From NCBI GenBank assembly GCA_964579725.1, contig CAZOHG010000002.1, positions 30,890-94,889 on the forward strand: a stretch of DNA of 64,000 bases. The letters run 5' to 3'. Both the position numbers and the translations under genes were made by a program. Shown one piece after another: positions 8,974-29,263 of this stretch. The first letter of the stretch is position 1, and every line of letters starts with the position of its first letter. Source of the stretch: an uncultured Deferribacteres bacterium. GTDB taxonomy: Bacteria > Zhuqueibacterota > JdFR-76 > BMS3Abin05. The notes under the pieces were generated by a model. The model was not told the origin of the DNA and did no database searches. It was given only the letters and a program-made list of their open reading frames with translations.

Positions 8974-9044
8974 TTTATTTCTCCTTCCGTTAGGTGAATA
9001 ATTGGGTAGGGAAATGCTCCCTACCCTCATCTGTTTCTTTCCGA

Positions 9045-9810: not shown

Positions 9811-9830
9811 AAAAGTGTAGAATATTCTAC
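9811..9830. repeat. Perfect 18-bp palindrome GTGTAGAATATTCTACAC between the cusA 3' end and the spy-like promoter region
   Basis: Read directly from the sequence. It is followed by TTTTAG on the top strand. It could act as an operator or as a hairpin/terminator. Confidence 0.3.
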
Positions 9831-9868
9831 ACTCAAGGGGGGCGATTTAACCATCGCCCCACCCTACA

Positions 9869-12979: not shown

Positions 12980-13014
12980 GCGTCTCCCACTAATTGAATG
13001 GTTTTGGCCCTCGC

Positions 13015-14448
13015 CTACTTCTTCTTTTCTGCCAGCATTTTTTGAATGGCTTCCTGCAACCGGCTCTCGGAATCCAAAAGGAATTGAGCCGAGGTGACAA
13101 CCTTTTCCCCCGGCAGCAAACCCGAAGCGACTTGCACCTCATCGGCGTTCTGAATACCCAATTGAACCTGGCGCGGTTGAAATTTTCCTTTTCCGAGAGC
13201 AATGAACACAAGATCCCGTACGCCGGTGCGAATAACGGCTTCGGAAGGCACGACCAAAGCTTTTTGTTGAGGGCGCGTTTTCAGAAAGACCGTGGCAAAC
13301 ATGTTGGGCTTCAAGATTAAATCTTGGTTGTCCAGCGTCAATCGCACTGCCACGGAACGCGTCTTGCGTTCCAAATAGGGGTAAATGTACGAAACAGTTC
13401 CGCTGAAATCCCGGTTGGGAAAGGCATCAAACCGAACAATGGCTTTTTGGCCCAGGTGCACCCAGGGAATATCGTTTTCGTAAATTGTGGCATTGAGCCA
13501 AACCGTTGAAAGGTCGGCAATCTTAAAAAGTGGCGCGCCCGCCCGCACAAAATCGCCCTGAAAAGCCTTTTTCTCGATGACAAACCCGTTCGTCGGAGCG
13601 AAGAGCGTCAGGGTTTTGGTCAAAACGCCCCTGTTTTCTAAGGAGCGAATTTGCGCTGGCGAGATGTCCCACAACTTGAGGCGGTCGCGCGTGGCTTTTA
13701 GAAGGTCACGGGCACCCCTGGTAACTTCGGGGAAAGAGCTTTTCCCCAGGAGCTTTCTGTTTTTCAGCGCAAGCAAATATTCCTGCTGGGTTGCCACCAA
13801 ATCCGGAGAGTATATTTCCAGCATGGGAGCGCCCTTTCTGACCCGTTTGCCGGTGTAATCCACAAAAAGGCGTTCAATCCAGCCGGAGATTTTTGTCGTG
13901 ACCGCCACCATTTTTTGTTCGTCGTAGGCCACGGTTCCCACGGTGCGAATACTCTTGCTGATGGTCTTTTCCCGAACGGCCACCGTTCGCACGCCCATAT
14001 TTTGCACGGTAATCGGGTCAATTTTTACCGTGCCGCCCTTTTGAACATCGCTTTCGTAGACCGGGACCAGGTCCATTCCCATTTTCGACTTGCCGGGATG
14101 ATCGTAAATTTCTGTGGGGTCCATGGGCGCCTGCCAGTACAAAATTTTCCCTTTTTTCTCGGCTGACGTTGTTTTTTCTGTCCCTTCTTCCGAACCGGAA
14201 GCACCCTGTTTGACCGGGACTAAATCCATGCCGCAGATGGGGCACTGGCCGGGTTCTTTGGAAATGACCTGCGGATGCATCGGGCAGGTGTACAGGGTGG
14301 CCTTTTGGGTGTCAGACGTCCGTGCCGGTGTTTCTTTTTGACTGGAGTCGTTTTCCTCCCCCGGCAAAAAGAAAAAAAGTCCCCACCCAATGGCTATTCC
14401 AATGAAGACAAGCGCCAACCCCTGAAAATAGCGTGTGAATGTACCCAT
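13015..14448 (-). CDS. cusB: RND efflux periplasmic adaptor (CusB-like) with a duplicated N-terminal Cys/Met metal-binding module
   Basis: The N-terminus carries YTCPMHPQVISKEPGQCPICGMDLVPV and a second degenerate copy, YWQAPMDP...KMGMDLVPV. Lipoyl/beta-barrel/MP-proximal domains typical of HlyD-family adaptors follow. Confidence 0.85.
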   Translation of the reverse strand: MGTFTRYFQGLALVFIGIAIGWGLFFFLPGEENDSSQKETPARTSDTQKATLYTCPMHPQVISKEPGQCPICGMDLVPVKQGASGSEEGTEKTTSAEKKGKILYWQAPMDPTEIYDHPGKSKMGMDLVPVYESDVQKGGTVKIDPITVQNMGVRTVAVREKTISKSIRTVGTVAYDEQKMVAVTTKISGWIERLFVDYTGKRVRKGAPMLEIYSPDLVATQQEYLLALKNRKLLGKSSFPEVTRGARDLLKATRDRLKLWDISPAQIRSLENRGVLTKTLTLFAPTNGFVIEKKAFQGDFVRAGAPLFKIADLSTVWLNATIYENDIPWVHLGQKAIVRFDAFPNRDFSGTVSYIYPYLERKTRSVAVRLTLDNQDLILKPNMFATVFLKTRPQQKALVVPSEAVIRTGVRDLVFIALGKGKFQPRQVQLGIQNADEVQVASGLLPGEKVVTSAQFLLDSESRLQEAIQKMLAEKKK

Positions 14449-14454
14449 TTGTTT

Positions 14455-15756
14455 TTACCTTTCCTTTGCTCTCAAAAATAAGGGTTTGCCAACAATAATT
14501 TCCAATTCGGTAAGGGCGATTTCATACTCAGCCTGTGCTCGGTAGTAGTCGCTTTCGTAGCGAAACAGTGTTTGTTGATTGTTCAGGAGCGTCAGAAAAT
14601 CGATCTTCCCCACCTGGTAACTGGTCAGAGCTGCGTCTAACGCCTGTTTGGCCTGAGGCAAAATGCCTTCCCTCAAAAGCTTAAGCTGCTTTCGATTTTT
14701 TTCCGCACGCACCCAGGCATCCCGCAACTGAAAGCGAAGGAGGTTCCGCATGTTTTCCAGCTCTGCTTTTGCCTTTTGCAAATTTAGATCCGCTTCCTCC
14801 GTTCTTTGGGCCTGTTTTTGCCCGAAAAAAACCGGCAGATTGAACGCAACCGTAGCGGAAACGTAGTCGATGCCGGGGGCTCCCGTTTTGAGACGGTCCC
14901 GCTGGGTGTACGCCACCCCCAGAGTGACATCCGGCCAAAAATCCTTTTTCGCCAGTCGAAACAACCGCTCGGCTTTTTGCACAACGAGGCGACTTTTTTT
15001 CAAAATCGGCCGCAACGCAAACGCCAGACTTTCCAGTTCCCCGAGCGTTTGGCTCAACGAATCCAACCGAATCGTTCGGATTTTCGGAATGGGGATGTCC
15101 ACAGGACGATTGACCAAGATATTTAATTTGGCCTGAAGCGATTGCCGCTGTTGACGCAAGGCAATTTGACGATTCCGCAAGTTGGAATATTCCACCTGCG
15201 CTTTGAGAACATCCTGCTGGACACCTTTTCCCACGGCGTAACGGGTCTCGGCAATCCGGTTGAATTGCTTCAACAGGGCCATATTTTTGGCCGTCACGCG
15301 CAGCATCCGGTCTACAGCAAAAAGAGCAAAATAGGTGCTCTTTACCCTTCCCACGAGCTGATTTTCAAGTTCGATCCGGGTTTGTTCCGCAATTTGAAAC
15401 CGCGCCCGGGCCACGGATTTTTTTAGGCCCAACTTCCCGGGAAAGGGGATTTTTTGCCTGAGTGAAAGCTGTTTACCCGACATGGGTTCCTTGTTGAATA
15501 CGAAGGCATTCACCGGCAAATTCATGAAACTTACCGACAAAACTGGGTCAGGAAGACTGCCTGCTTGCGGAATTTCTTTGGCCGCTGCTTGAACGGCCAG
15601 TGCTCGGGCACGCAAATCCGGATTGTTTCGGAGCGCCAGGCGGACAAATGTTTCCACAGAGGGGGCAGTTTTCGATTGTTGAGCAAAGGAAAGTCCATTT
15701 AAACCGAGCCAAACAAGGGCTCCCAAAAGAATTATTTTTCTTCCGTTCATTCTCAT
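14455..15756 (-). CDS. cusC: TolC-family outer membrane efflux protein (CusC-like)
   Basis: Shows the TolC/OEP two-repeat architecture. The signal peptide is MRMNGRKIILLGALVWLGLNGLSFAQQ. I placed the start at 15756 instead of the 15846 extension. Confidence 0.85.
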   Translation of the reverse strand: MRMNGRKIILLGALVWLGLNGLSFAQQSKTAPSVETFVRLALRNNPDLRARALAVQAAAKEIPQAGSLPDPVLSVSFMNLPVNAFVFNKEPMSGKQLSLRQKIPFPGKLGLKKSVARARFQIAEQTRIELENQLVGRVKSTYFALFAVDRMLRVTAKNMALLKQFNRIAETRYAVGKGVQQDVLKAQVEYSNLRNRQIALRQQRQSLQAKLNILVNRPVDIPIPKIRTIRLDSLSQTLGELESLAFALRPILKKSRLVVQKAERLFRLAKKDFWPDVTLGVAYTQRDRLKTGAPGIDYVSATVAFNLPVFFGQKQAQRTEEADLNLQKAKAELENMRNLLRFQLRDAWVRAEKNRKQLKLLREGILPQAKQALDAALTSYQVGKIDFLTLLNNQQTLFRYESDYYRAQAEYEIALTELEIIVGKPLFLRAKER

Positions 15757-15934
15757 TCCTACACTTGGTTGTGTCCCGCACCCCGCGGCGGCAGCCGATT
15801 TCACCTGTTTGAGGCAAACCGTCTGCCGCGGAGGAGTGTAAGCCAAAAATTTCCGTCTTTCTTACGAAAATTGTGGAGCGTGCCAGGGCCTGGGCTGTTT
15901 CACCACGCGTTTGAACGCCGCTCTCTTTGAAAGG

Positions 15935-16411
15935 CTATTTGACGTAGGCCGACGGTTTTTTCTTAAATTTCTCCAAATCGCCTTTGGCGCAAAAATAATA
16001 GGTGTGTCCCTTGTACGTCGTGCTGTATTTGGCCGTTTTGGGATTGACTTTCATCCCACAAACCGGGTCAATGACCCACGCAGCTGTTTGGCGCACGCGT
16101 TTTCCGTGTCTTTTCGCCATTGTGCGACCCATCCGATTTTGGGGAGATTGGGTTTGCTTCGGACGAGAAAGGTACGTCTCGGGATTTTTCTCAAATTTAG
16201 CTTTTTCGGCAGGACTACAAAAATAATAGGTTTTTCCTTTGTAGGTGGTTTTTGCTCCAGCCTGCGAAGGAGACATCGTCATGCCGCAAACGGCACACGT
16301 GACCGTTTGAGCCCTGGCCGCTTTTTCAGCCTGCGGATGTTCCTGGGCTACGGCCAAGGACGTGACAAAAAACAGGGCTACCCATACGCCAATCCATTGT
16401 CGGAATCTCAT
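15935..16411 (-). CDS. Secreted protein with two YHS (TRASH-like) metal-binding domains
   Basis: Two copies of the CxxCGM...YKGKTYYFC pattern are present: VTCAVCGMTMSP...KGKTYYFCSP and IDPVCGMKVNP...KGHTYYFCAK. A signal peptide is present. Confidence 0.8.
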   Translation of the reverse strand: MRFRQWIGVWVALFFVTSLAVAQEHPQAEKAARAQTVTCAVCGMTMSPSQAGAKTTYKGKTYYFCSPAEKAKFEKNPETYLSRPKQTQSPQNRMGRTMAKRHGKRVRQTAAWVIDPVCGMKVNPKTAKYSTTYKGHTYYFCAKGDLEKFKKKPSAYVK

Positions 16412-16540
16412 TTCGAAAACCTCCTTTTTGTGAGTTTGTCAACCAATTGCGTCTCTTAGATTCAATTGTTGTGCCAAAAAAGAGAAACAGAGCTAACCGT
16501 TTTATTTTCCGGTCGTAAGCTCAGTCATATTTTTTTGGGG

Positions 16541-16566
16541 CTTCGCCGATTCTACAGCGAATATTC
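16541..16566. promoter_or_regulatory. Direct repeat ATTCTACAG-N5-ATTCTACAG in the divergent YHS/lpdA intergenic region
   Basis: Read directly from the sequence. It shares the 12-mer GAATATTCTACA with the palindrome at 9811-9830. Confidence 0.25.
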
Positions 16567-16894
16567 TACAGCTTGGAGATTATTCTGCATATGCAACGCA
16601 TTATTTTTAAAATGAACCCTCAAACCAAAACCTCGGCGAGTGGAAAAACAAGTTCTTTTCGAAACAACGCCTCCGAAAATGGCTTTCAAACCAACAAAAA
16701 TATTCTGACCGGAGAAAAACCTTGAAAATTATTCCGATTTTTTTTACCTATTAAACGGGTTTTTCAATAAGGCTTTCGGCAAAAGTGAGGCGTTTTTGCC
16801 GTGCCACACATGTTGGCTCTACTTGGTAGCCCCTTTACCGGCCTTTCAAAAAAATTGGATGAGAGCGATTTAAAATCGACCAGGGAAAATAAAA

Positions 16895-18295
16895 ATGGAA
16901 AAAGCGCAAGCAGATTTAACAGTAATCGGCAGTGGGCCTGGCGGGTACGTGGCGGCCATTCGCGCGGCCCAGTTAGGAATGAAGGTTGTGGTGGTGGAAA
17001 AGGCGGAATTGGGCGGGGTTTGCCTCAATTGGGGCTGTATTCCGGCCAAAGCTTTACTTCGAAGCGCCGAGGTGTACGCTTTGCTTAATCGGGCGGGGGA
17101 GTTCGGCCTACGAGCCGAAGGCATCGATTTTGACTTCCCTCGAATCATTCAACGCAGCCGAGCGGCGGCAGAGAAACTTTCCAGAGGGGTGGCTTTTCTT
17201 TTTCGAAAAAATAAAGTGGATTTGGCCGTGGGACGGGGCATTTTGGATACGGGCAACACGGTGCACGTATTGGATGAAATCGGCAAAGAAAAATTGCAAA
17301 TTGTTTCCCAAAATATCCTGCTGGCTACCGGCGCGCGTCCGCGAGAATTGCCCTTTGCTCCCTTCGACCGGCAGACCATTTTAACCAGCACTGACGCAAT
17401 GCTGCTGCCCGAACCGCCCCGCTCACTCCTCATCGTGGGCGCCGGTGCCATTGGGGTGGAATTTGCCGATTTTTTTGCCACCTTTGGAACGGAAGTTACG
17501 CTGGTGGAGCTTTTACCGCACATTTTACCTGCGGAAGATGCAGAGATAGCCGGCGTGGTGCGGCGTTCCTTTTTGAAACGGAAAATCAAAATTCTGGTCA
17601 ACACATCTCTAAAAAGCGTGACCGTTGGAGAGTCGGGGGTGGAGGCGTGGCTGGAAGGCCCCAGGGGGGAGCAAGAACTGCGCGCCGAAAAGATGCTGGT
17701 CTCCGTAGGCGTCGTGCCCAATGTGGAGCATCTCGGGCTCGAGGAAGCGGGTGTGACAGTCGAAAAGGGTCACGTAAAAGTGGACGAATTTTTTCAAACC
17801 ACGGTGCCCGGTGTGTACGCCGTTGGAGACGTCGTCGGACCCCCCTACCTGGCACACGTGGCTTCCGCAGAGGGAATTTCGGCCGTGGAACACATGGCGG
17901 GTCTCCACATGCCACCTCTAAATTACCAAACGATTCCCGGGGTGGTTTTTTCGCACCCACAAGTGGCGCGGGTCGGTTTGACGGAAGAACAAGCCAAAAA
18001 ACAGGGGTTGAAAATTAAGGTGGGCAAATTTCCCTTTACGGCAAACGGCAAGGCGCTGACGAGTGGAGAGACCACCGGCCTGGTCAAATTGATTTTCGAC
18101 GCGCAGGTTGGGGAACTTTTGGGAGGGCACATTGTGGGCGAAAATGCCTCCGAGCTCATTGGAGAAATCGGGCTGGCCAAAAGCCACGAGGCCACGTATT
18201 TGAGTATTTTGAAGACGGTTCACAGTCACCCGACACTGAGCGAAGCAATCATGGAAGCTGCTGCAAACGCCAACGGTGAAGCCATTCACATCTGA
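16895..18295 (+). CDS. lpdA: Dihydrolipoyl dehydrogenase
   Basis: FAD-binding GxGxxG is present. The redox-active disulfide is GGVCLNWGCIPAK. The C-terminal motif is HSHPTLSEAIMEAA. There is no N-terminal HMA domain and no C-terminal Cys pair, so it is not MerA. Confidence 0.85.
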   Translation: MEKAQADLTVIGSGPGGYVAAIRAAQLGMKVVVVEKAELGGVCLNWGCIPAKALLRSAEVYALLNRAGEFGLRAEGIDFDFPRIIQRSRAAAEKLSRGVAFLFRKNKVDLAVGRGILDTGNTVHVLDEIGKEKLQIVSQNILLATGARPRELPFAPFDRQTILTSTDAMLLPEPPRSLLIVGAGAIGVEFADFFATFGTEVTLVELLPHILPAEDAEIAGVVRRSFLKRKIKILVNTSLKSVTVGESGVEAWLEGPRGEQELRAEKMLVSVGVVPNVEHLGLEEAGVTVEKGHVKVDEFFQTTVPGVYAVGDVVGPPYLAHVASAEGISAVEHMAGLHMPPLNYQTIPGVVFSHPQVARVGLTEEQAKKQGLKIKVGKFPFTANGKALTSGETTGLVKLIFDAQVGELLGGHIVGENASELIGEIGLAKSHEATYLSILKTVHSHPTLSEAIMEAAANANGEAIHI

Positions 18296-18567
18296 TAGAA
18301 AGCAAACAACGGGAACAGATCGAACATTGTGCTCCAAATTTACGGTTCAAACGAAAGAATTACGGTGCACGTACCATTCTTTGGCGAAAAAGCGGGAAAC
18401 AAAAAGTGGGATTTTTGCGGAAGCATTTTGGTTCCCGGCAGGTGTTCGCGGACTAAAATCTCCCTTTTTGCTTTTCTTTTACCGCTTGTTTCCTTATATT
18501 GAAGTAATTCTAAATTTGCCACAGAAAAACGGGTGAACTGTTGCGTACCAATTCCCAACCGGGAAAA

Positions 18568-20235
18568 ATGCCGTCCAAATGGTGGGGATGGGGTGAACCT
18601 GAGCGAACGTACAACCTCAAAAATCGCCCCTATTTTTGGCCGTACCTCCGGCAAAAACTCGATTTCCCCCAAAAACCGTTCCTTTTTCCGCCGGACTGGC
18701 GAGAAATTCCCCTTCCGCCGCCCGCCTTTTCCGAATCCGCAAAACGCAAATTAGGGGCCATTTTGCGAGCCGACCAGATCGACGATTCAGCACCTACCCG
18801 ACTGGCTCACGTGTACGGCAAAAGTTACCACGATTTGATTCGCATTCGTACCCGCCAATTCCCTGAATTCCCCGACGCTGTTGTTTTCCCCGAGGACGAA
18901 CAGCAGATCCTGCGGCTTCTCCGCTGGGCACAGGAAGAAAACACTGCTGTGGTTCCGTGGGGCGGCGGCACCAGTGTGGTCGGGGGCGTGGAAGCTCGAA
19001 TCGGCAAAGGGCAAAACAGTCTGGTGGTTTTAAAACTGCAACGAATGAGCCGCCTGGTGGGAATCGACAAAATTTCTCTCATTGCCGAGGCGGAGGCGGG
19101 AATTTTAGGCCCTAACCTGGAGACGGCTCTACAGGCTCAGGGGGTCACGCTTTCCCACTACCCCGAGTCCTTTGAATATTCCACCCTGGGCGGGTGGGCG
19201 GCCACGCGTTCAGCGGGACAACAATCCACGTTGTACGGCAAAATTGAAAAAATGGTGGAAAGCCTGCGGCTTGTGACGCCCAACGGTGTTTTGGAAACGC
19301 CCCCATTCCCGGCTGCCGCCGTGGGCCCCGACCTCAACCAAATGGTTCTGGGGTCGGAAGGCATTTTGGGGATCATTTCCCGCGTGCGCGTTCGGGTAAA
19401 ACCCATTCCCCCCGAAAAATGGTACACGGCCTTTCTTTTTCACTCCTTTTCGGCAGGCCTGGAAGCCGTCAGGGCGATCTTGCAGCAGGGCTTTACTCCG
19501 GCTACGGTGCGCCTGTCGGATCCGGAAGAAACGGACTTTATTTTCGCCCTTCGAGAGAAAAAATCAGGGGCCGTGAGTCAAGGGTTTGAAAAATTGGGAT
19601 TTGGGATTCTAAAGAAAAAGGGGTTTTTGCCGGGCAAGCGTTCTCTCTTAATTCTGGGATTGGAAGGAACGGAAAAATCGGTGCGATTGGAACGCCGAGT
19701 GGTGAGTGAAATCGTGAAAAAATCAAAGGCTTTTTCCTTAGGAAAAAATACGGGCAACGCCTGGTACCGGCACCGCTTCGAAAATCCCTACCTTCGCGAC
19801 ATTTTATTGGATTACGATCTGTTGGTGGACACTCTGGAAACGGCCGCCGAGTGGCAAAATGTGGGGGCTGTGTACGAATCCGGCCGAAGGGGAATTGAAA
19901 CCGCCCTGAAACAGCTTGGCATTCCCGGGCTGGTGACGGTTCACGCCTCCCACGTCTACCCCGACGGGACCTCCCTCTATTTTATTATTTTGGCGGTTCC
20001 ACACGTGGGGAAAGAATTGGAAGAGTGGTGGACAATCAAAAAGAGCGCTTCCGATGCCATTGTTCAGGCGGGCGGGGTCATAAGTCACCATCACGGCATC
20101 GGTTTGGACCACCGCCCCTGGTTGGAAAAAAATATCGGGAAAGAGGGCGTTGGCCTTCTTCGTCAACTCAAACAACAGGTGGACCCGGCCGGGATTTTGA
20201 ACCCGGGAAAATTGCTCCCCGAACCGGGAGATTGA
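18568..20235 (+). CDS. FAD-linked oxidase of the alkyldihydroxyacetone-phosphate synthase (AGPS)-like family
   Basis: There is an N-terminal KWWGWG motif; AGPS has RWNGWG. The FAD-binding PCMH domain is recognisable (VVPWGGGTSVVGG). The C-terminal HHHGIG is present. ATG at 18568 is preferred over TTG at 18541. Confidence 0.7.
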   Translation: MPSKWWGWGEPERTYNLKNRPYFWPYLRQKLDFPQKPFLFPPDWREIPLPPPAFSESAKRKLGAILRADQIDDSAPTRLAHVYGKSYHDLIRIRTRQFPEFPDAVVFPEDEQQILRLLRWAQEENTAVVPWGGGTSVVGGVEARIGKGQNSLVVLKLQRMSRLVGIDKISLIAEAEAGILGPNLETALQAQGVTLSHYPESFEYSTLGGWAATRSAGQQSTLYGKIEKMVESLRLVTPNGVLETPPFPAAAVGPDLNQMVLGSEGILGIISRVRVRVKPIPPEKWYTAFLFHSFSAGLEAVRAILQQGFTPATVRLSDPEETDFIFALREKKSGAVSQGFEKLGFGILKKKGFLPGKRSLLILGLEGTEKSVRLERRVVSEIVKKSKAFSLGKNTGNAWYRHRFENPYLRDILLDYDLLVDTLETAAEWQNVGAVYESGRRGIETALKQLGIPGLVTVHASHVYPDGTSLYFIILAVPHVGKELEEWWTIKKSASDAIVQAGGVISHHHGIGLDHRPWLEKNIGKEGVGLLRQLKQQVDPAGILNPGKLLPEPGD

Positions 20236-20338
20236 CGCTTCGCCACTGGGCGCCTTCAGAAAAACAGAACCAAATCGGGTACCTTGCGTTAGGAGAAAAA
20301 AGCAGCGGCCTGTCAAAAACTGGAAACAGTGAGGACAC

Positions 20339-22042
20339 ATGAACAATCGAACAAATAAAAACGAAAGCCTGGATTTTTCGCCGGAAAGACGCACCAAAAA
20401 TATTGACCTCATGAAACAAGAGCTGTTTGATGTTTTGGTGATTGGGGGTGGCATTACCGGGGTCGGCATTGCCCGCGACGCTGTTTTGCGCGGCTTGAAA
20501 GTAGCGTTGGTCGAAAAAGACGATTTCGCGGCCGGAACCAGCAGCAAATCGTCCAAGTTGGTGCACGGTGGCTTTCGCTACCTCAAACAGGGTGAATTTG
20601 CCCTAGTGCACGAGGCGCTGGTCGAACGCAAAATTCTCATGAACATCGCTCCCCATCTGGTACACCCCACTCCTTGCATTTTGCCAATCTACAAAAATTC
20701 GGCGGAGCCGCCCTGGATGATTCACATCGGGCTCTGGCTCTATGATTTGCTGGCTTTTACTAAAAACATCGGGCGGCACCGAATGCTGACGCTCGAGGAA
20801 ATCGCCCAAATGGAACCGGAACTCCGGCAGGAAGATTTGCGAAAAGCCGCCCAATATTTTGATTGCAAAGCGGACGATTTTCGATTGGTGCTGGCCACGG
20901 TACAATCGGCTGCCCAGAGCGGGGCTGTCATTGCCAACTACGTCAAGGCTGTAGAAGTGCTGAAAGAAGATCACAGGGTTACCGGTATTGTGGCCAAAGA
21001 TCAATTGACGGGAGCAACCTTGAAGATTCGGGCGCGAGCCATCGCCAATGCGACGGGACCCTGGAGTGACCGCGTCCAACAGGAATTGTTCGGGGAAATG
21101 AAACCGCACGTGCGCACCACCAAAGGGGTACACCTTTTGGTTCACCGCGACGATTTACCCATTCACCACGCTTTCATGCAATTTTCGATCCAGGACGGCC
21201 GACCCATTTTCGCCATTCCATGGAAAAATATTGTTCTTTTGGGCACCACCGACACTGATTACACAGGCGATCCCGATCGCATTGAAACCGAACGCGAAGA
21301 CGTCGACTACATTTTGGAATCCTTCAACTACTATTTTCCCCGGGCACACTTGACCGACGACAAAGTGCTTTCGGCATTTGCCGGTCTGCGGCCGCTTTTG
21401 CGCGAAGAAGGCAAATCGGCGTCACAGGTCACCCGTGAACACCGCATTTTTGAGACAGCACCCGGCTTTTTCAGCATTGTCGGCGGCAAACTCACCACTC
21501 ACCGTGTCATGGCTGACGACATGGTGAACCGCATCGCCAGCTATTTGGGAAAGAACTTTCACATTCGCCCGAAATTGCGGAAAACCGTCACGGCCACGGT
21601 CCCGCTTTACGGGGGCGACATCGAAAATTTCGACCTCTTTTACGCTCACTGGCGGGAAAAATTAACCCGACGGCACCAATTCGATTCGGACATTGCCGAG
21701 CATTTTATTGAAACATTCGGGACGAAAATTCCGGATTTGTTGGAAGCCATTGCCCAAACCCCGCACGGAGCGGAACGCATTCACCCCAAACTGCCCCATG
21801 TGTGGGGAGAATTAACCTACGCTCTTGAACACGAAATGACCCTGGCTTTAGACGATTTCCTCATTCGCCGCACCCACATTTTCTCCCTGGAAAAAAATCA
21901 GGGATTGGATGTGTACCCGAAAATTTTGCCCGTTTTGTCCAGGCGACTGGAGTGGACCAAAAAGGAAGAAGAAAAACAGGTGGCACGTCTGAAAATGAAG
22001 GTCGCGCTGACACAAGAATTCAGGCAAAAGGTTCGAAAATGA
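20339..22042 (+). CDS. glpD: FAD-dependent glycerol-3-phosphate dehydrogenase
   Basis: The FAD-binding N-terminus is DVLVIGGGITGVGIARDAVLRGLKVALVEK. Overall GlpD/GlpA architecture is present, including the C-terminal helical domain. Confidence 0.85.
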   Translation: MNNRTNKNESLDFSPERRTKNIDLMKQELFDVLVIGGGITGVGIARDAVLRGLKVALVEKDDFAAGTSSKSSKLVHGGFRYLKQGEFALVHEALVERKILMNIAPHLVHPTPCILPIYKNSAEPPWMIHIGLWLYDLLAFTKNIGRHRMLTLEEIAQMEPELRQEDLRKAAQYFDCKADDFRLVLATVQSAAQSGAVIANYVKAVEVLKEDHRVTGIVAKDQLTGATLKIRARAIANATGPWSDRVQQELFGEMKPHVRTTKGVHLLVHRDDLPIHHAFMQFSIQDGRPIFAIPWKNIVLLGTTDTDYTGDPDRIETEREDVDYILESFNYYFPRAHLTDDKVLSAFAGLRPLLREEGKSASQVTREHRIFETAPGFFSIVGGKLTTHRVMADDMVNRIASYLGKNFHIRPKLRKTVTATVPLYGGDIENFDLFYAHWREKLTRRHQFDSDIAEHFIETFGTKIPDLLEAIAQTPHGAERIHPKLPHVWGELTYALEHEMTLALDDFLIRRTHIFSLEKNQGLDVYPKILPVLSRRLEWTKKEEEKQVARLKMKVALTQEFRQKVRK

Positions 22043-22965
22043 CCCGAACCTGTTTTATTGTGAACCCCGTTTCGGCGGCGGGGAAAACAGGACGCTGGTG
22101 GCCCAGGGTGGAAAGGGTAATCCGGCGCCTGTGGGGACGGGATTTCGAGGTCGCTTTTACGGAACGTCCCTGGCACGCTGCGGAATTGACATCTCGGGCA
22201 CTGCGTCGGGGCTGTTTGCGCGTCGTCTCCGTTGGCGGAGACGGGACGCTAAACGAGGTGGTGAACGGCTTTTTCGACCGGGGCCGTTTTATTCAGCCCC
22301 AGGCTGCATTAGGCCTTTTGGAACTGGGCACGGGGGCCGATTTCGCGAAATCCCTTCCCCTGCCAAAGAAGCCCGAAGAGGTTTTGGAAATTATTCGAAA
22401 CGGACGTTCTCGAAAAATCGATCTCGGATTGGCTGAATTTACCGGTACAAACGGCACCGTTTGCTCGCGCTATTTCGTGAACATTCTGGACTTTGGACTG
22501 GGCGGTGCCGTCGTGGAACGGGTGAATCGAGCGTCCAAGCGGTGGGGCGGAAAAGCGGCTTTTTTAAAGGGCATTTTGGTGACCTTGGCCACGTACAAAA
22601 ACAAAACCATTCGATTCCAATTGGACGACGGCCCGTGGCAAACTCGAAAATTGAACAACTTTATTGTGGCCAACGGGCGGTATTTCGGAGGAGGGCTTCT
22701 TCCGGCTCCTCAGGCCGATCTGTCCGATGGGAAATTTGACATCGTTTTCCTCGGGGATGTGGGACGCTTGGAGGCCGTGCTGAATCTTTCCAAATTGAGA
22801 AAGGGAACGCATTTTGAAAACCCCAAGGTTTCGGGCACCCGTGCCGCTCGTGTGCAGGCGGAATCGGAAGAGCCCGTTTTTATTGACATTGACGGCGAAT
22901 TTGTCGGTACCCTTCCCATAAAAATTTTGGTTTTGCCTCAAATTTTGCCTATATTAATCCATTGA
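22039..22965 (+). CDS. Diacylglycerol-kinase-family lipid kinase (YegS/DagK-like)
   Basis: The DAGK_cat signature is VVSVGGDGTLNEVVNG. Its ATG overlaps the glpD stop in an ATGA arrangement, which suggests translational coupling. Confidence 0.8.
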   Translation: MTRTCFIVNPVSAAGKTGRWWPRVERVIRRLWGRDFEVAFTERPWHAAELTSRALRRGCLRVVSVGGDGTLNEVVNGFFDRGRFIQPQAALGLLELGTGADFAKSLPLPKKPEEVLEIIRNGRSRKIDLGLAEFTGTNGTVCSRYFVNILDFGLGGAVVERVNRASKRWGGKAAFLKGILVTLATYKNKTIRFQLDDGPWQTRKLNNFIVANGRYFGGGLLPAPQADLSDGKFDIVFLGDVGRLEAVLNLSKLRKGTHFENPKVSGTRAARVQAESEEPVFIDIDGEFVGTLPIKILVLPQILPILIH

Positions 22966-23145
22966 TCTGGACAGGGCCTCTGTATTTTCGGAGACCAGAA
23001 TCGGAGGTAGAAAAAAACGCCTATTTTCGCCCGTTTCGGCGAACTCAAACAGGTGCAAAAAAATACCCAGGCTCGAAATAGGGGATTTTCTTCGTAATTT
23101 TTCAAAGAACGAACTCTTGAACTGAGAACCAAAAAGGGAGTCTGT

Positions 23146-24441
23146 ATGTTAGGGAAACATCCAAAGGGATTAAAAGTACTGTTTTTTACGGAAATGTGGG
23201 AGCGGTTCGGTTTTTACACCATGTTGGCGCTTCTGGTTCTGTACATGAAACACGTGTTCGGCTGGGACGAGCACAAAATGGGACAGGTGTATGGGCTGTT
23301 TTTGGGACTCGTCTATTTCACACCACTTTTCGGAGGCTGGATCGCCGACCACGTCCTCGGCTACCGCCGAACAATTATGTTAGGGGCAGTCACCATGGCG
23401 GTTGGCTATGGCATGTTGGCCGTTCCGCATCCGGCGGAGCTTTTTTTCTACTTGAGTCTGGCTGTTATTGTTATTGGAAACGGATTGTTCAAGGCCAATA
23501 TTTCCGTTTTGGTTGGAAATTTGTACCCGCCTGACAGTCCGTTAAAGGACGAAAGTTACAATATTTTTTACATGGGGATTAACATCGGCGCCCTTTTGGC
23601 CCCTTTTGCCGCCAGCTACATGCGGAACACCTTTAGTTTCAACGCCGCTTTCGCCGTTTCGGCCGGGGGCATGCTCCTGAGCCTGATTATTTTCGAGTTG
23701 GGGAAAAAGCACTACCTTGTCCAGGGGGCCAAACCCAGCGAAGCCAAATTGGAAGAAGTCAAAATGACCAAATCGCAAGAAAAAGAGCGTATTTGGGCAT
23801 TGTTAGCCATTTTTGCCATTGTTATTTTTTTCTGGATGTCGTTTCACCAAAACGGCTTTGCCCTCACCCTTTTCGCCGACCAAGCCACGCGGCCGGTGAT
23901 TTCGCCCGAATTGTACCAGGCTTTCAACCCGATGTTTATTCTCATTTTGACGCCTCTCATTGTGGGCTTTTTCGCGATGTTACGCAAACGGGGCAAAGAG
24001 CCTTCCACCCCGGGCAAAATCGGAATCGGGATGTTTCTGGCGGGAACAGCCTTTGCCGTCATGATTGTGGCGTCTCTGGCCGGCGGAAATTTGGACAATC
24101 AGTCGCTCTCGCCTTCCTGGCTAATCAGCACCTATTTTATTATGACCATTGCGGAATTGTTTTTGAGTCCGATGGGGCTGTCGTTTGTGTCCAAAATTGC
24201 CCCAACCCGCATGCGGGGCACCATGATGGGAGGCTGGTTTACAGCCACGGCTATTGGAAATTACCTGTCCGGTTTTCTTGGCTCCTTCTACGGCACGTGG
24301 AAACACAGCACTTTTTTTGCCGTTTTGGTGACGGCCAGTCTGTTTTCGGCACTGTTAGTCTTTTTGCTTTTGAAGAAATTAAAGCACGCTACCCGGAGCG
24401 AAATTGACGTTCTCGAAATGGAAGCTGACGTGGCGGTGTAG
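23146..24441 (+). CDS. POT/PTR2-family proton-dependent di/tripeptide transporter
   Basis: The PTR2 signature FTEMWERFGFYTMLALLVLYM is at the N-terminus. A multi-TM MFS fold follows. Confidence 0.8.
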   Translation: MLGKHPKGLKVLFFTEMWERFGFYTMLALLVLYMKHVFGWDEHKMGQVYGLFLGLVYFTPLFGGWIADHVLGYRRTIMLGAVTMAVGYGMLAVPHPAELFFYLSLAVIVIGNGLFKANISVLVGNLYPPDSPLKDESYNIFYMGINIGALLAPFAASYMRNTFSFNAAFAVSAGGMLLSLIIFELGKKHYLVQGAKPSEAKLEEVKMTKSQEKERIWALLAIFAIVIFFWMSFHQNGFALTLFADQATRPVISPELYQAFNPMFILILTPLIVGFFAMLRKRGKEPSTPGKIGIGMFLAGTAFAVMIVASLAGGNLDNQSLSPSWLISTYFIMTIAELFLSPMGLSFVSKIAPTRMRGTMMGGWFTATAIGNYLSGFLGSFYGTWKHSTFFAVLVTASLFSALLVFLLLKKLKHATRSEIDVLEMEADVAV

Positions 24442-24688
24442 CTTGCTCACATTTGCGGGAAGTTGTGGGGATTCGACATTTTGAATCCCTACAATCTCCT
24501 CTGGCAAAACAAGCCCGCATCCGATTGAACAGCCTTTCAGAGGGTCAACATTGAGCCGTAATCTTGCCGTTTGGCGCGCCGGAACAAAGGCGCGGGGCAA
24601 TCTGATTTTTGCTTTCCAAATGGTTTTCTCGATTTTTACTCCGGGGGGAAATCCTGCCGCACAGATTTCAAAATCTTTCAAAATTTTT

Positions 24689-24717
24689 ATTGACAATGCC
24701 GCCTGAAATGAGTAAGT
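24689..24717 (+). promoter_or_regulatory. Candidate sigma70-type promoter: TTGACA, 17-nt spacer, TAAGTT
   Basis: Read in the intergenic region upstream of the 24835 gene. Confidence 0.3.
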
Positions 24718-24834
24718 TAAAGTGAAACCATTGCGGGATATTTAATCATGAAACATTTGCTCGTTTTCTCTCGCCGTTTTAGGGAAAAAACAAAAACGCA
24801 ATTCTGCTGTAAAAACAAAATTCTTCTCTAAAAT

Positions 24835-27138
24835 ATGGCCAAAAAAGCCGCTCGGAAAATTGAGGAAAAAATCCTCGACTATTTGCGGAATTACCCACAC
24901 CTGTCGGAGAACTTCTACCGTCAGTTACTCATCTCCCTTCACACCGAAAAAAATGTGACCGTCGACCAGATTTACGAGGCTGCGCACAAACAGCTTAAAC
25001 AAGAAATAGAACGTGCGGACGAGCACAATCCCAACGAAGGCACAGCCCGCCGTTGGGACCAGAAAGAAAAAATCATCATGCATTCGCTCATTGTGCGGTA
25101 CGCGTCCGAACTGTTCACCGAAGAAGAAATCGACACCATTTTCGCGGTGGCGCGGGGGCGCAGCGAGGCACAAAAATTGGAGGATATCGCCTCGCTGCCG
25201 GACGTGTCGTTTCGTCTTTTGGCCGACCGCCTCAAGGAATTTTGCGCTCTCACCAACAATTCGGAAAACATTCCGGAATCGGAGGCCATGGGGATTCGAG
25301 TCGCTCTGATTCGCCATTTCATCAGCGACCAGCTGGAATTTATCGGAGTAGCCAAACGCTACCTGAAAATTTGTGATTTCCTGCCCATCGTCGAAAATTC
25401 CATCGGCCCGAAACGAGGCATTGGGAAGATCGGGGGCAAAGCAGCCGGGATGTTTTTGGCCTACAAAATTTTGTGCCGCCAGCGGGAAAAATCCAAAGAA
25501 CCCGGTTGCCCTGTGGCAATCCCGGAATCCTATTTTTTGCGATCCGACCTGTATCTGGAGTTCATTAATCGGAACGGATTGATTAAATTTTACGACGAAA
25601 AATACAAGCCCATTGAGGAAATTCGCGCTGATTTTCCCATGATTAAAGAAGTTTTTAAGAACGGCGAGTTTCCCGAAAATATCGTAAAAAAATTGCGCAA
25701 GCTTTTGAAAAAGTGGGGGAAAACGCCGATTATTGTCCGGTCCAGCAGTCTTTTGGAGGACAATTTCGGGTCGGCTTTTTCGGGCAAATACGACAGCATT
25801 TTTCTCCCCAATCAGGACACCCTGGAAAATCGCCTTCAGGCCCTGTTGGGCGCAATTGCGGAAGTGTACGCCAGCACCCTCGGCCCGGACCCCATTCTTT
25901 ACCGACGTGAACGCAATCTAATTGATTACGATGAACAAATGGGCATCCTCATTCAAAAGGTGGTCGGCATTCAATACCGCCATTATTATTTGCCCATTTG
26001 GGCAGGGGTCGGTTTTGCGCGAAACGAGTACCGCTGGAGCAAACGCATTCGGAAAGAAGACGGTTTGCTCCGACTGGTCATGGGATTGGGAACCCGAGCC
26101 GTAGATCGCGTGGGTAGCGATTACCCGCGAATGGTGGCACTGAGCATCCCTTCTCTCCGCCCCGAAGCCAATATTGCGGATATTCGAAAATATTCCCAGC
26201 GCTACATTGACGTGATTAATCTCCAAACCAATCGCCTGGAAACGGTCACTCTGGATCACATGCTAAGCGACGAGCCCTTTCCCTTTCTCGATCAAATTGT
26301 CTCCATTGAAAAAGACAACGACCTCCAAACCCCCGTGGGGAAAATTCTCCGTCCCGCCGGCCAACGGTTTGTCATTACTTTTGACAAATTGCTCATGCAG
26401 ACGCACTATCCGCAGATTTTGAAAAAGGCATTGAAAACCCTCGAAAAGGCCTACGGCTACCCGGTGGACATCGAATTTGCTTTTGACGGGCAAAGCCTTT
26501 TTATTTTGCAATGCCGCCCCCAAACACGTATTTCGGAACATCACAGACCCCACATTCCGGAAAATCTGCCGGAGGAAGCCATCCTGTTTACGGCGAACCA
26601 CGACGTTCCCAACGGAGTGGTGCGAAAAATCGACACTATTGTGTACATTGATCCCAAGAAATACGACCAAATTCAGTCCTACCACGATAAACTAACCGTT
26701 GGTAAAATTGTGGGAAAACTGAACGTCCGGCTGGCTCATCGAAAATTCATTCTCATGGGCCCCGGACGCTGGGGCAGCAACGACATTAATTTGGGGGTAC
26801 GGGTTCGCTACGCCGATATTAGCCGCACCAAAATGCTCATTGAAATCGCGCGGCAAACCGGTAATTACATTCCGGAAGTTTCGTTCGGTACGCACTTTTT
26901 CCAAGATCTGGTGGAAGCAAAAATTTACCATTTGCCCCTTTACCCCGACGAAAAAAATGTACGCTTCAACGAGACTTTTTTTCAGCAAGCCCCGAACGAA
27001 TTGGCCGAAATTGTTCCGGAATACGCACAATTTGCAGACGTGGTGCGCGTTATTGACGTGCCGAAGGCCACTGGCGGCAAAACCCTGACCGTCGCTCTGG
27101 ACGGCGAAAACGAACAAGCCGTCGCTTATTTTGAATAA
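24835..27138 (+). CDS. PEP/pyruvate-binding (PPDK_N) domain protein with unknown N- and C-terminal extensions
   Basis: The central region matches the PPDK_N ATP-grasp pattern: IGGKAAGMFLAY, VRSSSLLEDNFGSAFSGKYDSIF, GILIQKVVG and GLGTRAVD. I see no phosphohistidine swivel domain or PEP-utilizer domain. Confidence 0.6.
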   Translation: MAKKAARKIEEKILDYLRNYPHLSENFYRQLLISLHTEKNVTVDQIYEAAHKQLKQEIERADEHNPNEGTARRWDQKEKIIMHSLIVRYASELFTEEEIDTIFAVARGRSEAQKLEDIASLPDVSFRLLADRLKEFCALTNNSENIPESEAMGIRVALIRHFISDQLEFIGVAKRYLKICDFLPIVENSIGPKRGIGKIGGKAAGMFLAYKILCRQREKSKEPGCPVAIPESYFLRSDLYLEFINRNGLIKFYDEKYKPIEEIRADFPMIKEVFKNGEFPENIVKKLRKLLKKWGKTPIIVRSSSLLEDNFGSAFSGKYDSIFLPNQDTLENRLQALLGAIAEVYASTLGPDPILYRRERNLIDYDEQMGILIQKVVGIQYRHYYLPIWAGVGFARNEYRWSKRIRKEDGLLRLVMGLGTRAVDRVGSDYPRMVALSIPSLRPEANIADIRKYSQRYIDVINLQTNRLETVTLDHMLSDEPFPFLDQIVSIEKDNDLQTPVGKILRPAGQRFVITFDKLLMQTHYPQILKKALKTLEKAYGYPVDIEFAFDGQSLFILQCRPQTRISEHHRPHIPENLPEEAILFTANHDVPNGVVRKIDTIVYIDPKKYDQIQSYHDKLTVGKIVGKLNVRLAHRKFILMGPGRWGSNDINLGVRVRYADISRTKMLIEIARQTGNYIPEVSFGTHFFQDLVEAKIYHLPLYPDEKNVRFNETFFQQAPNELAEIVPEYAQFADVVRVIDVPKATGGKTLTVALDGENEQAVAYFE

Positions 27139-27196: not shown

Positions 27197-29263
27197 ATGA
27201 ACAAAAAGTGGATTTTTGTTCTCTGGGGATTCCTTTTCAACTTCTTTTTCGGGACTTCCGGCGGACTTGCCCAGAATTTTGGGTACGATTGGCGCAAGGC
27301 CTACGACGTCAAACGGTACGATTTGGCTCTCAAAATAAATCCCGATTCGCAAACCGTGGCAGGGCGGGTGCGCATTTCGGGCATTTGCCTGCGCACGCGT
27401 TTGGATTCCGTCTTTTTGGATCTGGCCGACGGATTCACCGTAACGGCGGTCAAGAATGTGCCCAATGACTCGCTCTTGCCATTTCGCTACTCCCGGAATC
27501 AACTGGTTTTGGCTCTGAAACCACCGCTCCAAAAGGGACAGCGCTTTTCCGTGGACATTGTGTACCACGGAACGCCGCCTCCCGGTAAAGGCGGAATGAG
27601 CGAAACCGCTTTTATTTGGGGACGAACGCCGCAGGGTGCCCCCTGGGTGGGGACTTCCTGCCAAACCTTGGGCTCTCATTTCTGGTGGCCCTGCAAGGCA
27701 GCTTTTTTCCATCCTGAGGACAAAGCCGATTCCATTTCAATCGCCTTAACGGTGCCGGACACCCTGGTGGCCGTTAGCAACGGACGGAACTTGGGGGTGT
27801 CTCCCGATTCTTCGGGTTGGAGAACATTTCGCTGGCTGGTCACCCATCCCACGTCAACCTACTTAATTACCCTGTACGTCGGGCCGTACGTGGAACTGAC
27901 CCAGCCTATTCCGCTGCCGTCTGAAAAAGACACTCTAATGGCCCATTATTACGTGCTAATGGGCAACGAACAACGCGCAAAAGAGGAATTTTTTCCACGC
28001 GTGCCCGACGAAATTCGTCTGTACACCCGCTACTACGGGCCCTTTGCTTTTGCCAGCGACAAATTCGGATTGGTACAATCCCCTTACGCGGGCATGGAAC
28101 ATTCTACCGCCGTGGCTGTAGGCCCTATTTTTCCTCACACGCTGCGGCCCGGCGAACCCAATCCCTTGCAATGGTACGACCATTACTTCAACTACATGGT
28201 AGTCCACGAGGTGGCACACGAGTGGTGGGGAAATGCCGTAACCGCTCTGGATTGGGGGCACTTCTGGCTCCACGAGGGGTTTGCCACCTACAGCGAGGCT
28301 CTCTGGATGGAACACAAATTCGGCCGCGAAGCGCTGCACCAATATATGGCCCAACTGAGCTTTCGGCTGGATTCCACCCAAAGCGTGTACCGTCCACGCC
28401 ACAAAACGGCACGTGAAGCCTACAGCAGCGGTATCTACTGGAAGGGAGCCTGGGTGCTTCACATGCTGCGCTATGTCTTGGGCGACCGAACTTTTTTCAA
28501 AACGCTTCGAGATTTTAACACCGATCCGCAGTACCGCTACCACAATGCCACTACGGCCGATTTCCAAGCCACCTGCGAAAAAAACTACGGACGGGATTTG
28601 TCCTGGTTCTTTCTGGAGTGGATTTACGGCACAGGCTGGCCGCACCTAAAATTCAGCACAAAAATTACAGGAACCCACGCCCGGATTTCCGTCAGGGACA
28701 CCTCTTTTAGCCGTACCCGATTCAAAATGCCCCTGGACGTCCTGCTGGTATGGAAAGGGGGGCAAAAACGCCGTCGCCTTTGGCTGAAACCGGGGGAAAA
28801 CACCTTCACCCTAAAGGCGCCGAAACCCATTCTCGCCGTCAAGCCGGTGGGACTGCGTTGGATTTTGGACGGCCCCAAACGCGGCCACATCCGCTATTTT
28901 TCCGATTTGGATTTTGTCATGGGGAAATTTGGCCCCGGTCTTGTGTTCACTCGGGACCGTCGGCTTTTTGTGAAGGGAGAAAATGCCACATGGATTTCTC
29001 CGGCACGCCATCTTTTCCGCGGAGCCCGCTTCTTAAGACTTCGGTTGGACACTACCAAAGATCTGCGTTGGAAACGGGTTGTCCTTTTTGTTCGGGAACA
29101 CAAATTTCGCAAGCGGGAACGGAAACCGTGGCAGAGGGTAGAATTGCAGGGGGAAATCCCCCCAAATGTGCAAACGGTGCGCGCCATTGAATACAAATTG
29201 GATTTTGGCGCCCTGCGCGGTCAAACGCTGCCCGTTCCCACGGTGATTCTCGATTACCGATAG
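27197..29263 (+). CDS. M1-family zinc aminopeptidase, secreted
   Basis: HEVAHEWWGN followed 18 residues later by WLHEGFATYSE forms the HEXXH-x18-E zinc site. An M1 GxMEN-like region is present (AGMEHSTA). A signal peptide is present. Confidence 0.85.
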   Translation: MNKKWIFVLWGFLFNFFFGTSGGLAQNFGYDWRKAYDVKRYDLALKINPDSQTVAGRVRISGICLRTRLDSVFLDLADGFTVTAVKNVPNDSLLPFRYSRNQLVLALKPPLQKGQRFSVDIVYHGTPPPGKGGMSETAFIWGRTPQGAPWVGTSCQTLGSHFWWPCKAAFFHPEDKADSISIALTVPDTLVAVSNGRNLGVSPDSSGWRTFRWLVTHPTSTYLITLYVGPYVELTQPIPLPSEKDTLMAHYYVLMGNEQRAKEEFFPRVPDEIRLYTRYYGPFAFASDKFGLVQSPYAGMEHSTAVAVGPIFPHTLRPGEPNPLQWYDHYFNYMVVHEVAHEWWGNAVTALDWGHFWLHEGFATYSEALWMEHKFGREALHQYMAQLSFRLDSTQSVYRPRHKTAREAYSSGIYWKGAWVLHMLRYVLGDRTFFKTLRDFNTDPQYRYHNATTADFQATCEKNYGRDLSWFFLEWIYGTGWPHLKFSTKITGTHARISVRDTSFSRTRFKMPLDVLLVWKGGQKRRRLWLKPGENTFTLKAPKPILAVKPVGLRWILDGPKRGHIRYFSDLDFVMGKFGPGLVFTRDRRLFVKGENATWISPARHLFRGARFLRLRLDTTKDLRWKRVVLFVREHKFRKRERKPWQRVELQGEIPPNVQTVRAIEYKLDFGALRGQTLPVPTVILDYR

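Follow-up and report, generated by a model that had tools for sequence, protein, structure and literature searches.

We analysed three adjacent genes in a 64,000-nucleotide stretch of a contig from an uncultured Deferribacteres bacterium (CAZOHG010000002.1, assembly GCA_964579725.1; hereafter the window), which encode an FAD enzyme of the alkyldihydroxyacetone-phosphate synthase (AGPS) family, a glycerol-3-phosphate (G3P) dehydrogenase of the GlpD/GlpO family and a soluble lipid kinase of the DgkB/YegS/Rv2252/BmrU family. The trio proved to be one ordinary copy of a conserved module that is widespread across bacterial phyla. Judging from gene content, we suggest, with a probability of roughly 40%, that the three enzymes act in sequence on the glycerol backbone of lipids, in an ether-glycerolipid route centred on dihydroxyacetone phosphate (DHAP) that would operate without the FAR, GNPAT and reductase set.

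Hundreds to thousands of bacterial genomes carry annotated AGPS-family genes, which are usually listed as an orphan step of "ether lipid metabolism"; many of these genes form a distinct clade that is tied by synteny and fusion to GlpD and a lipid kinase, not to FAR, GNPAT or a reductase. The interest lies in the module, with its clade split, its fusions and its direction, and less in the window copy; copies in model organisms exist as PA3026-PA3023 of Pseudomonas aeruginosa and Rv2249c-Rv2252 of Mycobacterium tuberculosis.

An AGPS-family oxidase in an operon-like trio

The AGPS-like gene (18568..20235, + strand) has an ATG start and encodes 555 amino acids (aa), the glpD gene (20339..22042, +) encodes 567 aa, and the kinase gene (22039..22965, +), again with an ATG start, encodes 308 aa. 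The AGPS-like protein begins with MPSKWWGWGE and carries SHHHGIG at residues 506-512; an upstream TTG at 18541 is not the start used by its homologues, and a 99%-identical 555-aa database protein spans 100% of the query. Among the matches listed, its closest named relatives are Calditrichaeota/Calditrichia proteins from metagenome-assembled genomes (MAGs), at 55-60% identity, and the host of the window is therefore probably an uncultured Calditrichota-like bacterium. The spacer of 103 nt before glpD (20236..20338, +) holds no terminator-like site, as seen in a terminator scan, and a GAGG lies 9 nt 5' of the glpD ATG. As read from the sequence, the glpD TGA and the kinase ATG overlap as ATGA (22039..22042, +), suggesting translational coupling, and a 4-nt overlap is likewise called on the near-identical NCBI metagenome contig L085, where the gene order (Cus efflux, dihydrolipoyl dehydrogenase, oxidase, GlpD, kinase, POT transporter) matches that of the window. 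The three genes form one operon-like unit, with a dihydrolipoyl dehydrogenase (Lpd) gene upstream and a POT peptide transporter gene downstream. A first-pass annotation, made from the letters of the window, had described the three genes, the KWWGWG motif, the FAD domain, HHHGIG and the ATGA overlap, and all of these statements hold. A promoter and terminator scan of 16500-24900 returned fewer sites than shuffled sequence and none at the operon borders, the sigma-70 consensus being probably unsuited to an FCB-group-like host, and Rfam and tRNA scans of the whole window gave no match.

The oxidase consists of FAD_binding_4 (PF01565, residues 102-242, E 5e-34) and FAD-oxidase_C (PF02913, residues 281-549, E 1e-39). 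This core is common to D-lactate dehydrogenase and GlcD-type enzymes of the VAO/PCMH superfamily, and the top NCBIfam match by name is GlcD, so that the oxidase might be taken for such an enzyme resembling AGPS. However, the GlcD models score far below their cut-offs (TIGR00387, 141 bits against 567.9; PRK11230, 71 against 897), and a phmmer search of the PDB gave 364 bits (E 1e-107) for Dictyostelium AGPS (2uuu) and 273 for guinea-pig AGPS (4bby), against 103 for the best D-lactate dehydrogenase. Over about 465-500 aligned columns, the oxidase is 35-36% identical to the Dictyostelium enzyme and 31% identical to that of guinea pig. When an AlphaFold model of the oxidase (pLDDT 85, pTM 0.86) was searched with Foldseek, the best 37 matches were all AGPS chains, 36 of them with TM scores of 0.81-0.89 and one truncated chain with 0.75; the AGPS matches span about 565 columns including the N-terminus (E 1e-50 to 1e-42), whereas the LDHD match (TM about 0.70, E 1e-31) is without the N-terminal domain. 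D-lactate dehydrogenase and GlcD enzymes also differ from the window enzyme in having no AGPS catalytic set. Scores, fold and AGPS-specific residues thus refute a D-lactate dehydrogenase or GlcD at the level of sequence and fold.

The AGPS-specific residues were located by alignment. R315, R410, Y471 and H507-509 correspond to R352, R447, Y508 and the HHH loop of Dictyostelium AGPS, R315 and Y471 also to R419 and Y578 of the guinea-pig enzyme, and the HHH loop of AGPS is numbered H615-617; mutagenesis showed the importance of Dictyostelium R352, R447 and Y508 for catalysis, and the HHH loop and the residue roles were described in the same work (PMC3509576). R315, R410, Y471 and H507-509, together with W8 and G9, are kept in at least 97% of 91 sequences, in both of the clades described below, and the former six are invariant in a 15-sequence alignment (A1), as is S461, the counterpart of guinea-pig T568 in the PDB alignment. 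KWWGWGE (residues 4-10) pairs with KWNGWGD (residues 17-23) of Dictyostelium AGPS, whose N-terminal domain is longer by about 23 residues. The window enzyme therefore shares with the AGPS/ADPS enzymes (EC 2.5.1.26; Dictyostelium, mammals and Myxococcus xanthus MXAN_1676) the three-domain fold, the N-terminal domain, W-x-G-W-G, the tyrosine, the two arginines and the HHH loop. It is a member of the AGPS family and not a lactate or glycolate oxidase, in agreement with the first-pass annotation, which had proposed an AGPS-like oxidase and pointed to the active-site Tyr and His and to the N-terminal domain as the features to look for. Since the oxidase keeps the full AGPS catalytic set and the N-terminal domain found only in AGPS, it most likely performs AGPS-type chemistry on a DHAP-level glycerolipid.

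The second gene product consists of DAO (PF01266) and DAO_C (PF16901) and scores above the NCBIfam equivalog cut-offs (PRK12266, 397 bits against 360; PRK13369, 373 against 352). Its PDB matches are Bacillus halodurans GlpD (3da1, 350 bits), Streptococcus GlpO (334) and Escherichia coli GlpD (255), and it keeps the HGGxRYL, GLRPL and GGKxT motifs. The protein is 55% identical to the GlpD half of a Calditrichota AGPS-GlpD fusion (P0241). The glycerol catabolic glpFKD operons likewise have a quinone-linked G3P dehydrogenase of the GlpD family; in contrast, a Pfam scan of the window open reading frames (ORFs) revealed neither glpK nor glpF near the trio, and the partners here are the AGPS-like enzyme and the lipid kinase. 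The kinase consists of DAGK_cat (PF00781) and YegS_C (PF19279) and contains the GGDGT motif as VGGDGTLNE. It scores 140 bits against TIGR00147 (YegS/Rv2252/BmrU; cut-off 118.65), while all the more specific equivalog models stay under their cut-offs, and its best PDB match is Staphylococcus aureus DgkB (2qv7, 81 bits), followed by YegS.

A widespread module, its fusions and its clade

To gauge the size of the family, a full HMMER pass was made over 1.84 billion cluster representatives (50%-identity clusters), which yielded 1482 representatives at E<=1e-30, the 150th match still scoring 308 bits. A one-genome-per-species scan confirmed at least 595 relatives, and a word-indexed search returned at least 8000 candidates. 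The statement of the first-pass annotation that bacterial AGPS homologues are uncommon is thus not borne out.

Gene context was compared in 83 loci from 18 taxon groups, which were searched by tblastn with the window proteins. No Calditrichota locus was among the relatives listed by the one-genome-per-species scan, and the gene context in Calditrichota comes from separate contig look-ups. GlpD and/or the kinase adjoin the AGPS-like gene in 46 of the 83 loci (both in 32, GlpD only in 13, the kinase only in 1). The 25 Thermoleophilia loci are all unlinked, so that the linkage amounts to 46 of 58 outside this class. Linked loci occur in 11 of the 18 sampled groups, and linked phyla and classes include Calditrichota, Chloroflexota with Dehalococcoidia, Actinomycetes, Alphaproteobacteria, Bacteroidota, Bdellovibrionota, Myxococcota, Armatimonadota, Acidobacteriota and two archaeal bins. 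Three gene orders were found, namely AGPS-GlpD-kinase, GlpD-kinase-AGPS, and glpD divergent from AGPS-kinase, and the genes flanking the trio are unrelated between loci.

AGPS and GlpD also occur as single polypeptides of about 1100 aa, in four protein clusters (P0241, P0247, P0253 and P0256) that are mutually less than 50% identical and include Calditrichota and Fidelibacterota members. Each fusion holds a full-length AGPS-like and a full-length GlpD part in the window order, with an in-frame linker of about 5-25 aa in place of the spacer, and the motifs are intact (W-x-G-W-G, degenerate in P0241; SHHHG; GGGITG/GGGIVG). Three of the four clusters occur on two or three independent contigs each, and the fourth on a single contig. 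We rejected a gene-calling artefact in view of the four divergent clusters, the recurrence of three of them on separate contigs, the short in-frame linkers and the intact motifs. The conserved synteny and the fusions indicate that the three genes are functionally linked, and an AGPS-GlpD fusion is most easily explained if the two enzymes catalyse consecutive steps.

These data bear on the simplest alternative, that a generic FAD oxidase, an ordinary GlpD and a diacylglycerol kinase are three unrelated housekeeping neighbours. Each gene is indeed ordinary by its domain content, and in 37 of the 83 loci, mostly of Thermoleophilia, the AGPS-like gene stands alone. However, the recurrence of the synteny in 11 of 18 groups with a varying gene order, the changing flanking genes, the ATGA overlap of glpD and the kinase, and the lack of glpK and glpF nearby all speak against chance, and the cross-phylum synteny and the fusions together effectively refute it. 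The co-localisation seen by the first-pass annotation, with the same order on L085, thus goes beyond coincidence.

A fourth conserved neighbour was not found, as ORF clustering of the 83 loci gave none in three or more taxon groups; an apparent cluster in high-GC genomes was an antisense-ORF artefact. Pfam assigned unrelated functions to 30 flanking ORFs, except for a GMC oxidoreductase in L079. The L053 gene is preceded by a long ORF that had been suspected of encoding a FAR-GNPAT fusion; this ORF has no Pfam match and is probably spurious. GMC-family oxidoreductases lie directly beside the AGPS-GlpD pair in Armatimonadota (L001, 9189-11198; found from the Pfam list) and in Flavobacteriaceae (L079, 6383-7996), and the two proteins are not close homologues. 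The GMC family includes long-chain alcohol dehydrogenases, and the L001 and L079 proteins could be fatty-alcohol dehydrogenases. The complete trio is also present on archaea-binned contigs, at 8001-12210 of a Conexivisphaerales MAG (L005) and at 8001-12083 of a "Methanobacteriota archaeon" MAG (L015), by either horizontal transfer or mis-binning. Other proteins fuse the AGPS core to a PF01553 acyltransferase (P0210, P0220, P0221, P0223, P0237 and P0296), an acyl-CoA-binding domain (P0372), NUDIX (P0365) or a PfkB kinase (P0380).

The module type has already been noticed in P. aeruginosa and M. tuberculosis. In P. aeruginosa, PA3026 is an FAD-binding oxidoreductase, PA3025 a GlpD homologue, PA3024 an FGGY kinase and PA3023 a YegS-type lipid kinase; overexpression of the AraC-type regulator GliR (PA3027) raised the PA3026-PA3023 mRNA 47- to 173-fold and also that of the phospholipase C PA3464, whereas deletion of the operon gave no phenotype, and an in silico pathway leading from glycerol to alkylglycerone phosphate was put forward for PA3026-PA3024 (PMC8151288). 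The idea of an in silico ether-lipid route is thus not new. PA3026-PA3023 contains the same three components as the window, namely the oxidoreductase proposed to form alkylglycerone phosphate, the GlpD homologue and the YegS-type kinase. In contrast, the FGGY kinase PA3024, the divergent AraC regulator and the co-induced PA3464 have no equivalent at the window locus, where neither a regulator (AraC GliR or TetR) nor an FGGY kinase adjoins the trio.

The genes Rv2249c (glpD1), Rv2250c (regulator), Rv2251 (flavoprotein) and Rv2252 (diacylglycerol kinase) lie side by side in M. bovis BCG and M. tuberculosis and are regulated together (PMC4564863). This is the same trio, with glpD divergent and the flavoprotein followed by the kinase; it differs from the window in gene order and in the inserted TetR-type regulator, and the arrangement also occurs in Streptomyces, Kitasatospora and Spirillospora loci (L038, L044, L065, L066 and L080). 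Owens and co-workers reportedly found diacylglycerol-kinase activity in Rv2252 in 2006. Judging by the actinomycete loci, Rv2251 probably belongs to the same clade as the window enzyme.

We placed the window enzyme in a midpoint-rooted neighbour-joining tree of 91 sequences, built with no outgroup and from two sample sets picked by similarity to two different queries. The tree is split into two clades (83 of 100 bootstrap replicates), with a mean identity of 44-47% within clades and 38% between them. Clade I contains the window protein, every GlpD- or kinase-linked gene, the unlinked Thermoleophilia genes, Solincola and a few other bacterial genes, whereas clade II contains the eukaryotic AGPS and the bacterial genes linked to FAR, an acyltransferase or SDR; the window enzyme is thus placed separately from the eukaryotic AGPS. 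MXAN_1676, PA3026, Rv2251 and Rv3107c lie outside the tree, and their clades are assigned indirectly.

The seven clade II loci (L087-L093) were found by searching with Dictyostelium AGPS for the nearest bacterial genes. Six of them have FAR-like, acyltransferase or SDR partners or acyltransferase fusions, and none has a linked GlpD. PF01553 acyltransferase-AGPS fusions stand beside FAR-like NAD_binding_4 genes in L087 and L088; L090 holds an acyltransferase, AGPS, SDR and a classic FAR, L091 a giant PKS/FAS-like gene, an acyltransferase, SDR and AGPS, and L093 a FAR-like gene and AGPS. In L089 (4402-11006 of CAYNEF010000026.1, GCA_964396165.1), AGPS stands side by side with a DagK-family kinase, a FAR-like gene, an acyltransferase-SDR fusion and a PF10520 CarF/PEDS1-type desaturase, and together these genes appear to make up a complete aerobic cluster of the plasmalogen type. 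The clade II enzymes belong to the same protein family as the window enzyme and have identical catalytic residues, but their linkage or fusion is to a PF01553 acyltransferase, a FAR-like protein or SDR and never to GlpD. Validated or eukaryote-like AGPS genes likewise sit with FAR, a GNPAT-type acyltransferase and an SDR reductase, whereas the window enzyme goes with GlpD and a lipid kinase. None of FAR, acyltransferase and reductase was found among the 33 largest window ORFs by Pfam, and a tblastn search with the FAR, acyltransferase and PEDS1 sequences of clade II gave no match in the window. In the 84 clade I loci, the same queries matched only an acyltransferase about 5 kb off the AGPS-like gene in L026, besides scattered generic SDR genes.

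The partners bear on a second alternative, canonical de novo ether-lipid synthesis, in which GlpD would supply DHAP, an unlinked acyltransferase would form acyl-DHAP, the AGPS-like enzyme would exchange the acyl group for a fatty alcohol from an unlinked FAR, an unlinked reductase would yield 1-alkyl-G3P, and the kinase would recycle alkyl-acyl-glycerol or diacylglycerol. The AGPS reaction turns acyl-DHAP and a fatty alcohol into 1-O-alkyl-DHAP and a fatty acid, with FAD in its oxidised form and without net redox change. The full AGPS catalytic apparatus and fold would suit this role, as would the presence of a DagK-family kinase in the bona fide plasmalogen-type cluster L089; AGPS chemistry is documented in the acyl-to-alkyl direction only (PMC3509576), the pathway is the one proposed in silico for PA3026-PA3024, and Calditrichaeota reportedly have homologues of Ger, which belongs to another type of ether-lipid route (PMC13159169), so that ether lipids in the phylum are not implausible. 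However, the trio would not then catalyse consecutive steps, and both GlpD and the kinase would be dispensable, since every cell has DHAP from glycolysis and the pathway does without a kinase. The view of the first-pass annotation that GlpD makes DHAP for AGPS is weak for the same reason, and also because the acyltransferase, the fatty-alcohol source and the reductase are absent from the window. In addition, the FAR, acyltransferase and SDR genes go with the other clade, an AGPS-GlpD fusion would be odd with an acyltransferase step between the two enzymes, the quinone-linked GlpD is a catabolic enzyme, and no alkyl ether glycerolipids are known from the well-studied carriers of the cluster, P. 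aeruginosa, Streptomyces and mycobacteria. We rate canonical synthesis as somewhat less likely than the consecutive route suggested above. The myxobacterial precedent to which the first-pass annotation appealed is a weak analogy as well, since the validated AGPS of M. xanthus, which is about 42% identical to human AGPS, lies beside a FAR-GNPAT fusion (bioRxiv 10.1101/2025.10.10.681575) and the window enzyme falls in a clade without such partners; the M. xanthus enzyme would presumably belong to clade II. The ether-lipid interpretation of the first-pass annotation as a whole is partly supported.

The clade split also allows a third alternative, that the AGPS-like protein has drifted away from ether bonds and, for example, exchanges or hydrolyses the acyl group of acyl-DHAP or carries out a new flavin reaction with DHAP itself, in a module for glycerol or glycerolipid turnover. 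The clade is separate from every validated AGPS placed in the tree. Only five positions split the clades cleanly (window residues 137, 200, 218, 422 and 487), and one of them corresponds to guinea-pig D303, which is in the contact list of a docked inhibitor that also touches FAD-site and active-site residues (PMC13019191). The P. aeruginosa deletion without a phenotype, in a species where no ether lipid is known (PMC8151288), would fit as well. Nevertheless, all the residues known for AGPS catalysis are kept at 97% or more in both clades, together with the N-terminal domain and its motif, and simple hydrolases already handle esters, so that such elaborate chemistry would be hard to explain without an ether bond. 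We therefore consider a non-ether function unlikely.

A possible consecutive-step route

For the proposed ether-glycerolipid route, we infer each chemical step, what GlpD and the kinase act on, and the direction from the observed gene identities, residues, fold, synteny, fusions and clade split. In the first step, the kinase would phosphorylate a glycerol-level lipid (diacyl-, monoacyl- or 1-O-alkyl-glycerol); GlpD would then oxidise the G3P-level compound to the DHAP level and pass the electrons to quinone, and the AGPS-like enzyme would finally swap or remove the sn-1 chain. By the AGPS mechanism (PMC3509576), the tyrosine base would enolise a 1-O-substituted DHAP, C1 would bond covalently to N5 of the oxidised FAD, and the sn-1 substituent would leave and another oxygen nucleophile would be added, whereby a C1-O ether or ester bond would be made or exchanged. 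In a variant with an acyl input, lysophosphatidate would be oxidised to acyl-DHAP, which would amount to GNPAT-independent ether synthesis.

As for the direction, we lean slightly towards salvage or breakdown of alkylglycerols rather than net ether synthesis, because GlpD is an oxidative enzyme of the respiratory chain, because the AraC-type activator of P. aeruginosa also drives phospholipase C and the deletion is without phenotype, because a GMC oxidoreductase lies beside the pair in two distant phyla, and because the well-studied carriers are not known to contain alkyl ether lipids. In its most specific form, the clade I modules would enable bacteria to use or salvage 1-O-alkylglycerol ether lipids, which resist cleavage by ordinary lipases; we offer this form as a speculation with a low chance of being right. 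The DgkB/YegS-type kinase would then be the long-orphan alkylglycerol kinase and form 1-alkyl-G3P, the GlpD paralogue would convert this to 1-alkyl-DHAP, and the AGPS-like enzyme would reverse the second half-reaction, the flavin-N5 adduct freeing the fatty alcohol. Water or a fatty acid would add back to give DHAP or acyl-DHAP. Salvage would explain why the trio travels together, the AGPS-GlpD fusions and the lack of linked FAR, acyltransferase and reductase genes, and likewise the occasional GMC partner, the activator shared with phospholipase C in P. aeruginosa and the deletion without phenotype.

We know of no bacterial route for alkylglycerol salvage or breakdown. In animals, the alkylglycerol monooxygenase (AGMO) is described as the sole known enzyme of alkylglycerol breakdown (PMC7911779), and the alkylglycerol kinase activity counts as an orphan (PMC7911779, PMC3520006). 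If true, salvage by clade I modules would be the first flavin-dependent ether-lipid-cleaving route and a bacterial counterpart to AGMO, and, if clade I degrades ether lipids, it would fill a missing step in lipid turnover. If it makes them instead, the bacterial capacity for ether lipids would be far broader than assumed.

Several points weigh against the consecutive-step route. A literature search for biochemical work on GlpD-linked (clade I) bacterial AGPS turned up only the regulatory study of P. aeruginosa, and no assay of such an enzyme. The window GlpD looks canonical, with scores over the equivalog cut-offs and its motifs kept, so that we purely infer its lipid-linked substrate, and characterised GlpD and GlpO enzymes use free G3P. 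AGPS is known only in the acyl-to-alkyl direction, and ether cleavage by its chemistry would be without precedent. One clade II cluster of clearly biosynthetic character (L089) contains a DagK-family kinase as well. The clade split rests on a neighbour-joining tree with 83% support, drawn from biased sampling and without the M. xanthus enzyme, PA3026 and Rv2251. Finally, the partner searches in this genome covered the window, and genes for FAR, GNPAT and a reductase could lie elsewhere in it.

Other genes of the window

The Lpd gene directly upstream of the AGPS-like gene (16895..18295, +) scores 547 bits against TIGR01350 (cut-off 408.8). Lpd takes the same position in L085, in L086 (54-nt gap) and in an Anaerolineales locus (L024), and in no other locus, and no E1 or E2 gene was found near the window Lpd. 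Its presence may be coincidental, or it may be a fourth module member specific to this lineage. By the Pfam scan of 33 ORFs, the window has just one further lipid-related gene, which encodes a PAP2-family lipid phosphatase (2904-3686, -) and lies about 15 kb away from the trio.

A Cus-type heavy-metal RND efflux system (9869-16411, -) comprises an AcrB-family pump, a CusB-like adaptor with HMBD domains and an outer-membrane factor, and is followed by a small YHS-domain ORF, whose annotation was taken from the near-identical contig L085. Downstream of the trio, a 767-aa protein (24835-27138, +) has only the PPDK_N (ATP-grasp) domain known from PEP-utilising enzymes and scores far under every PEP synthase model; it counts as an unassigned kinase-like protein. 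The next gene encodes an M1 aminopeptidase (27197-29263). A multihaem c-type cytochrome with a C-terminal FlgD-Ig domain is encoded at 4107-6242 (-). Finally, a glycan-degradation island at 39254-54492 contains a GH3 enzyme (39254-41572, -), tandem GH38 alpha-mannosidase paralogues (42390-45239 and 46471-49323, -), a HAD phosphatase (49992-50876, -) and an alpha-L-rhamnosidase (51238-54492, +).

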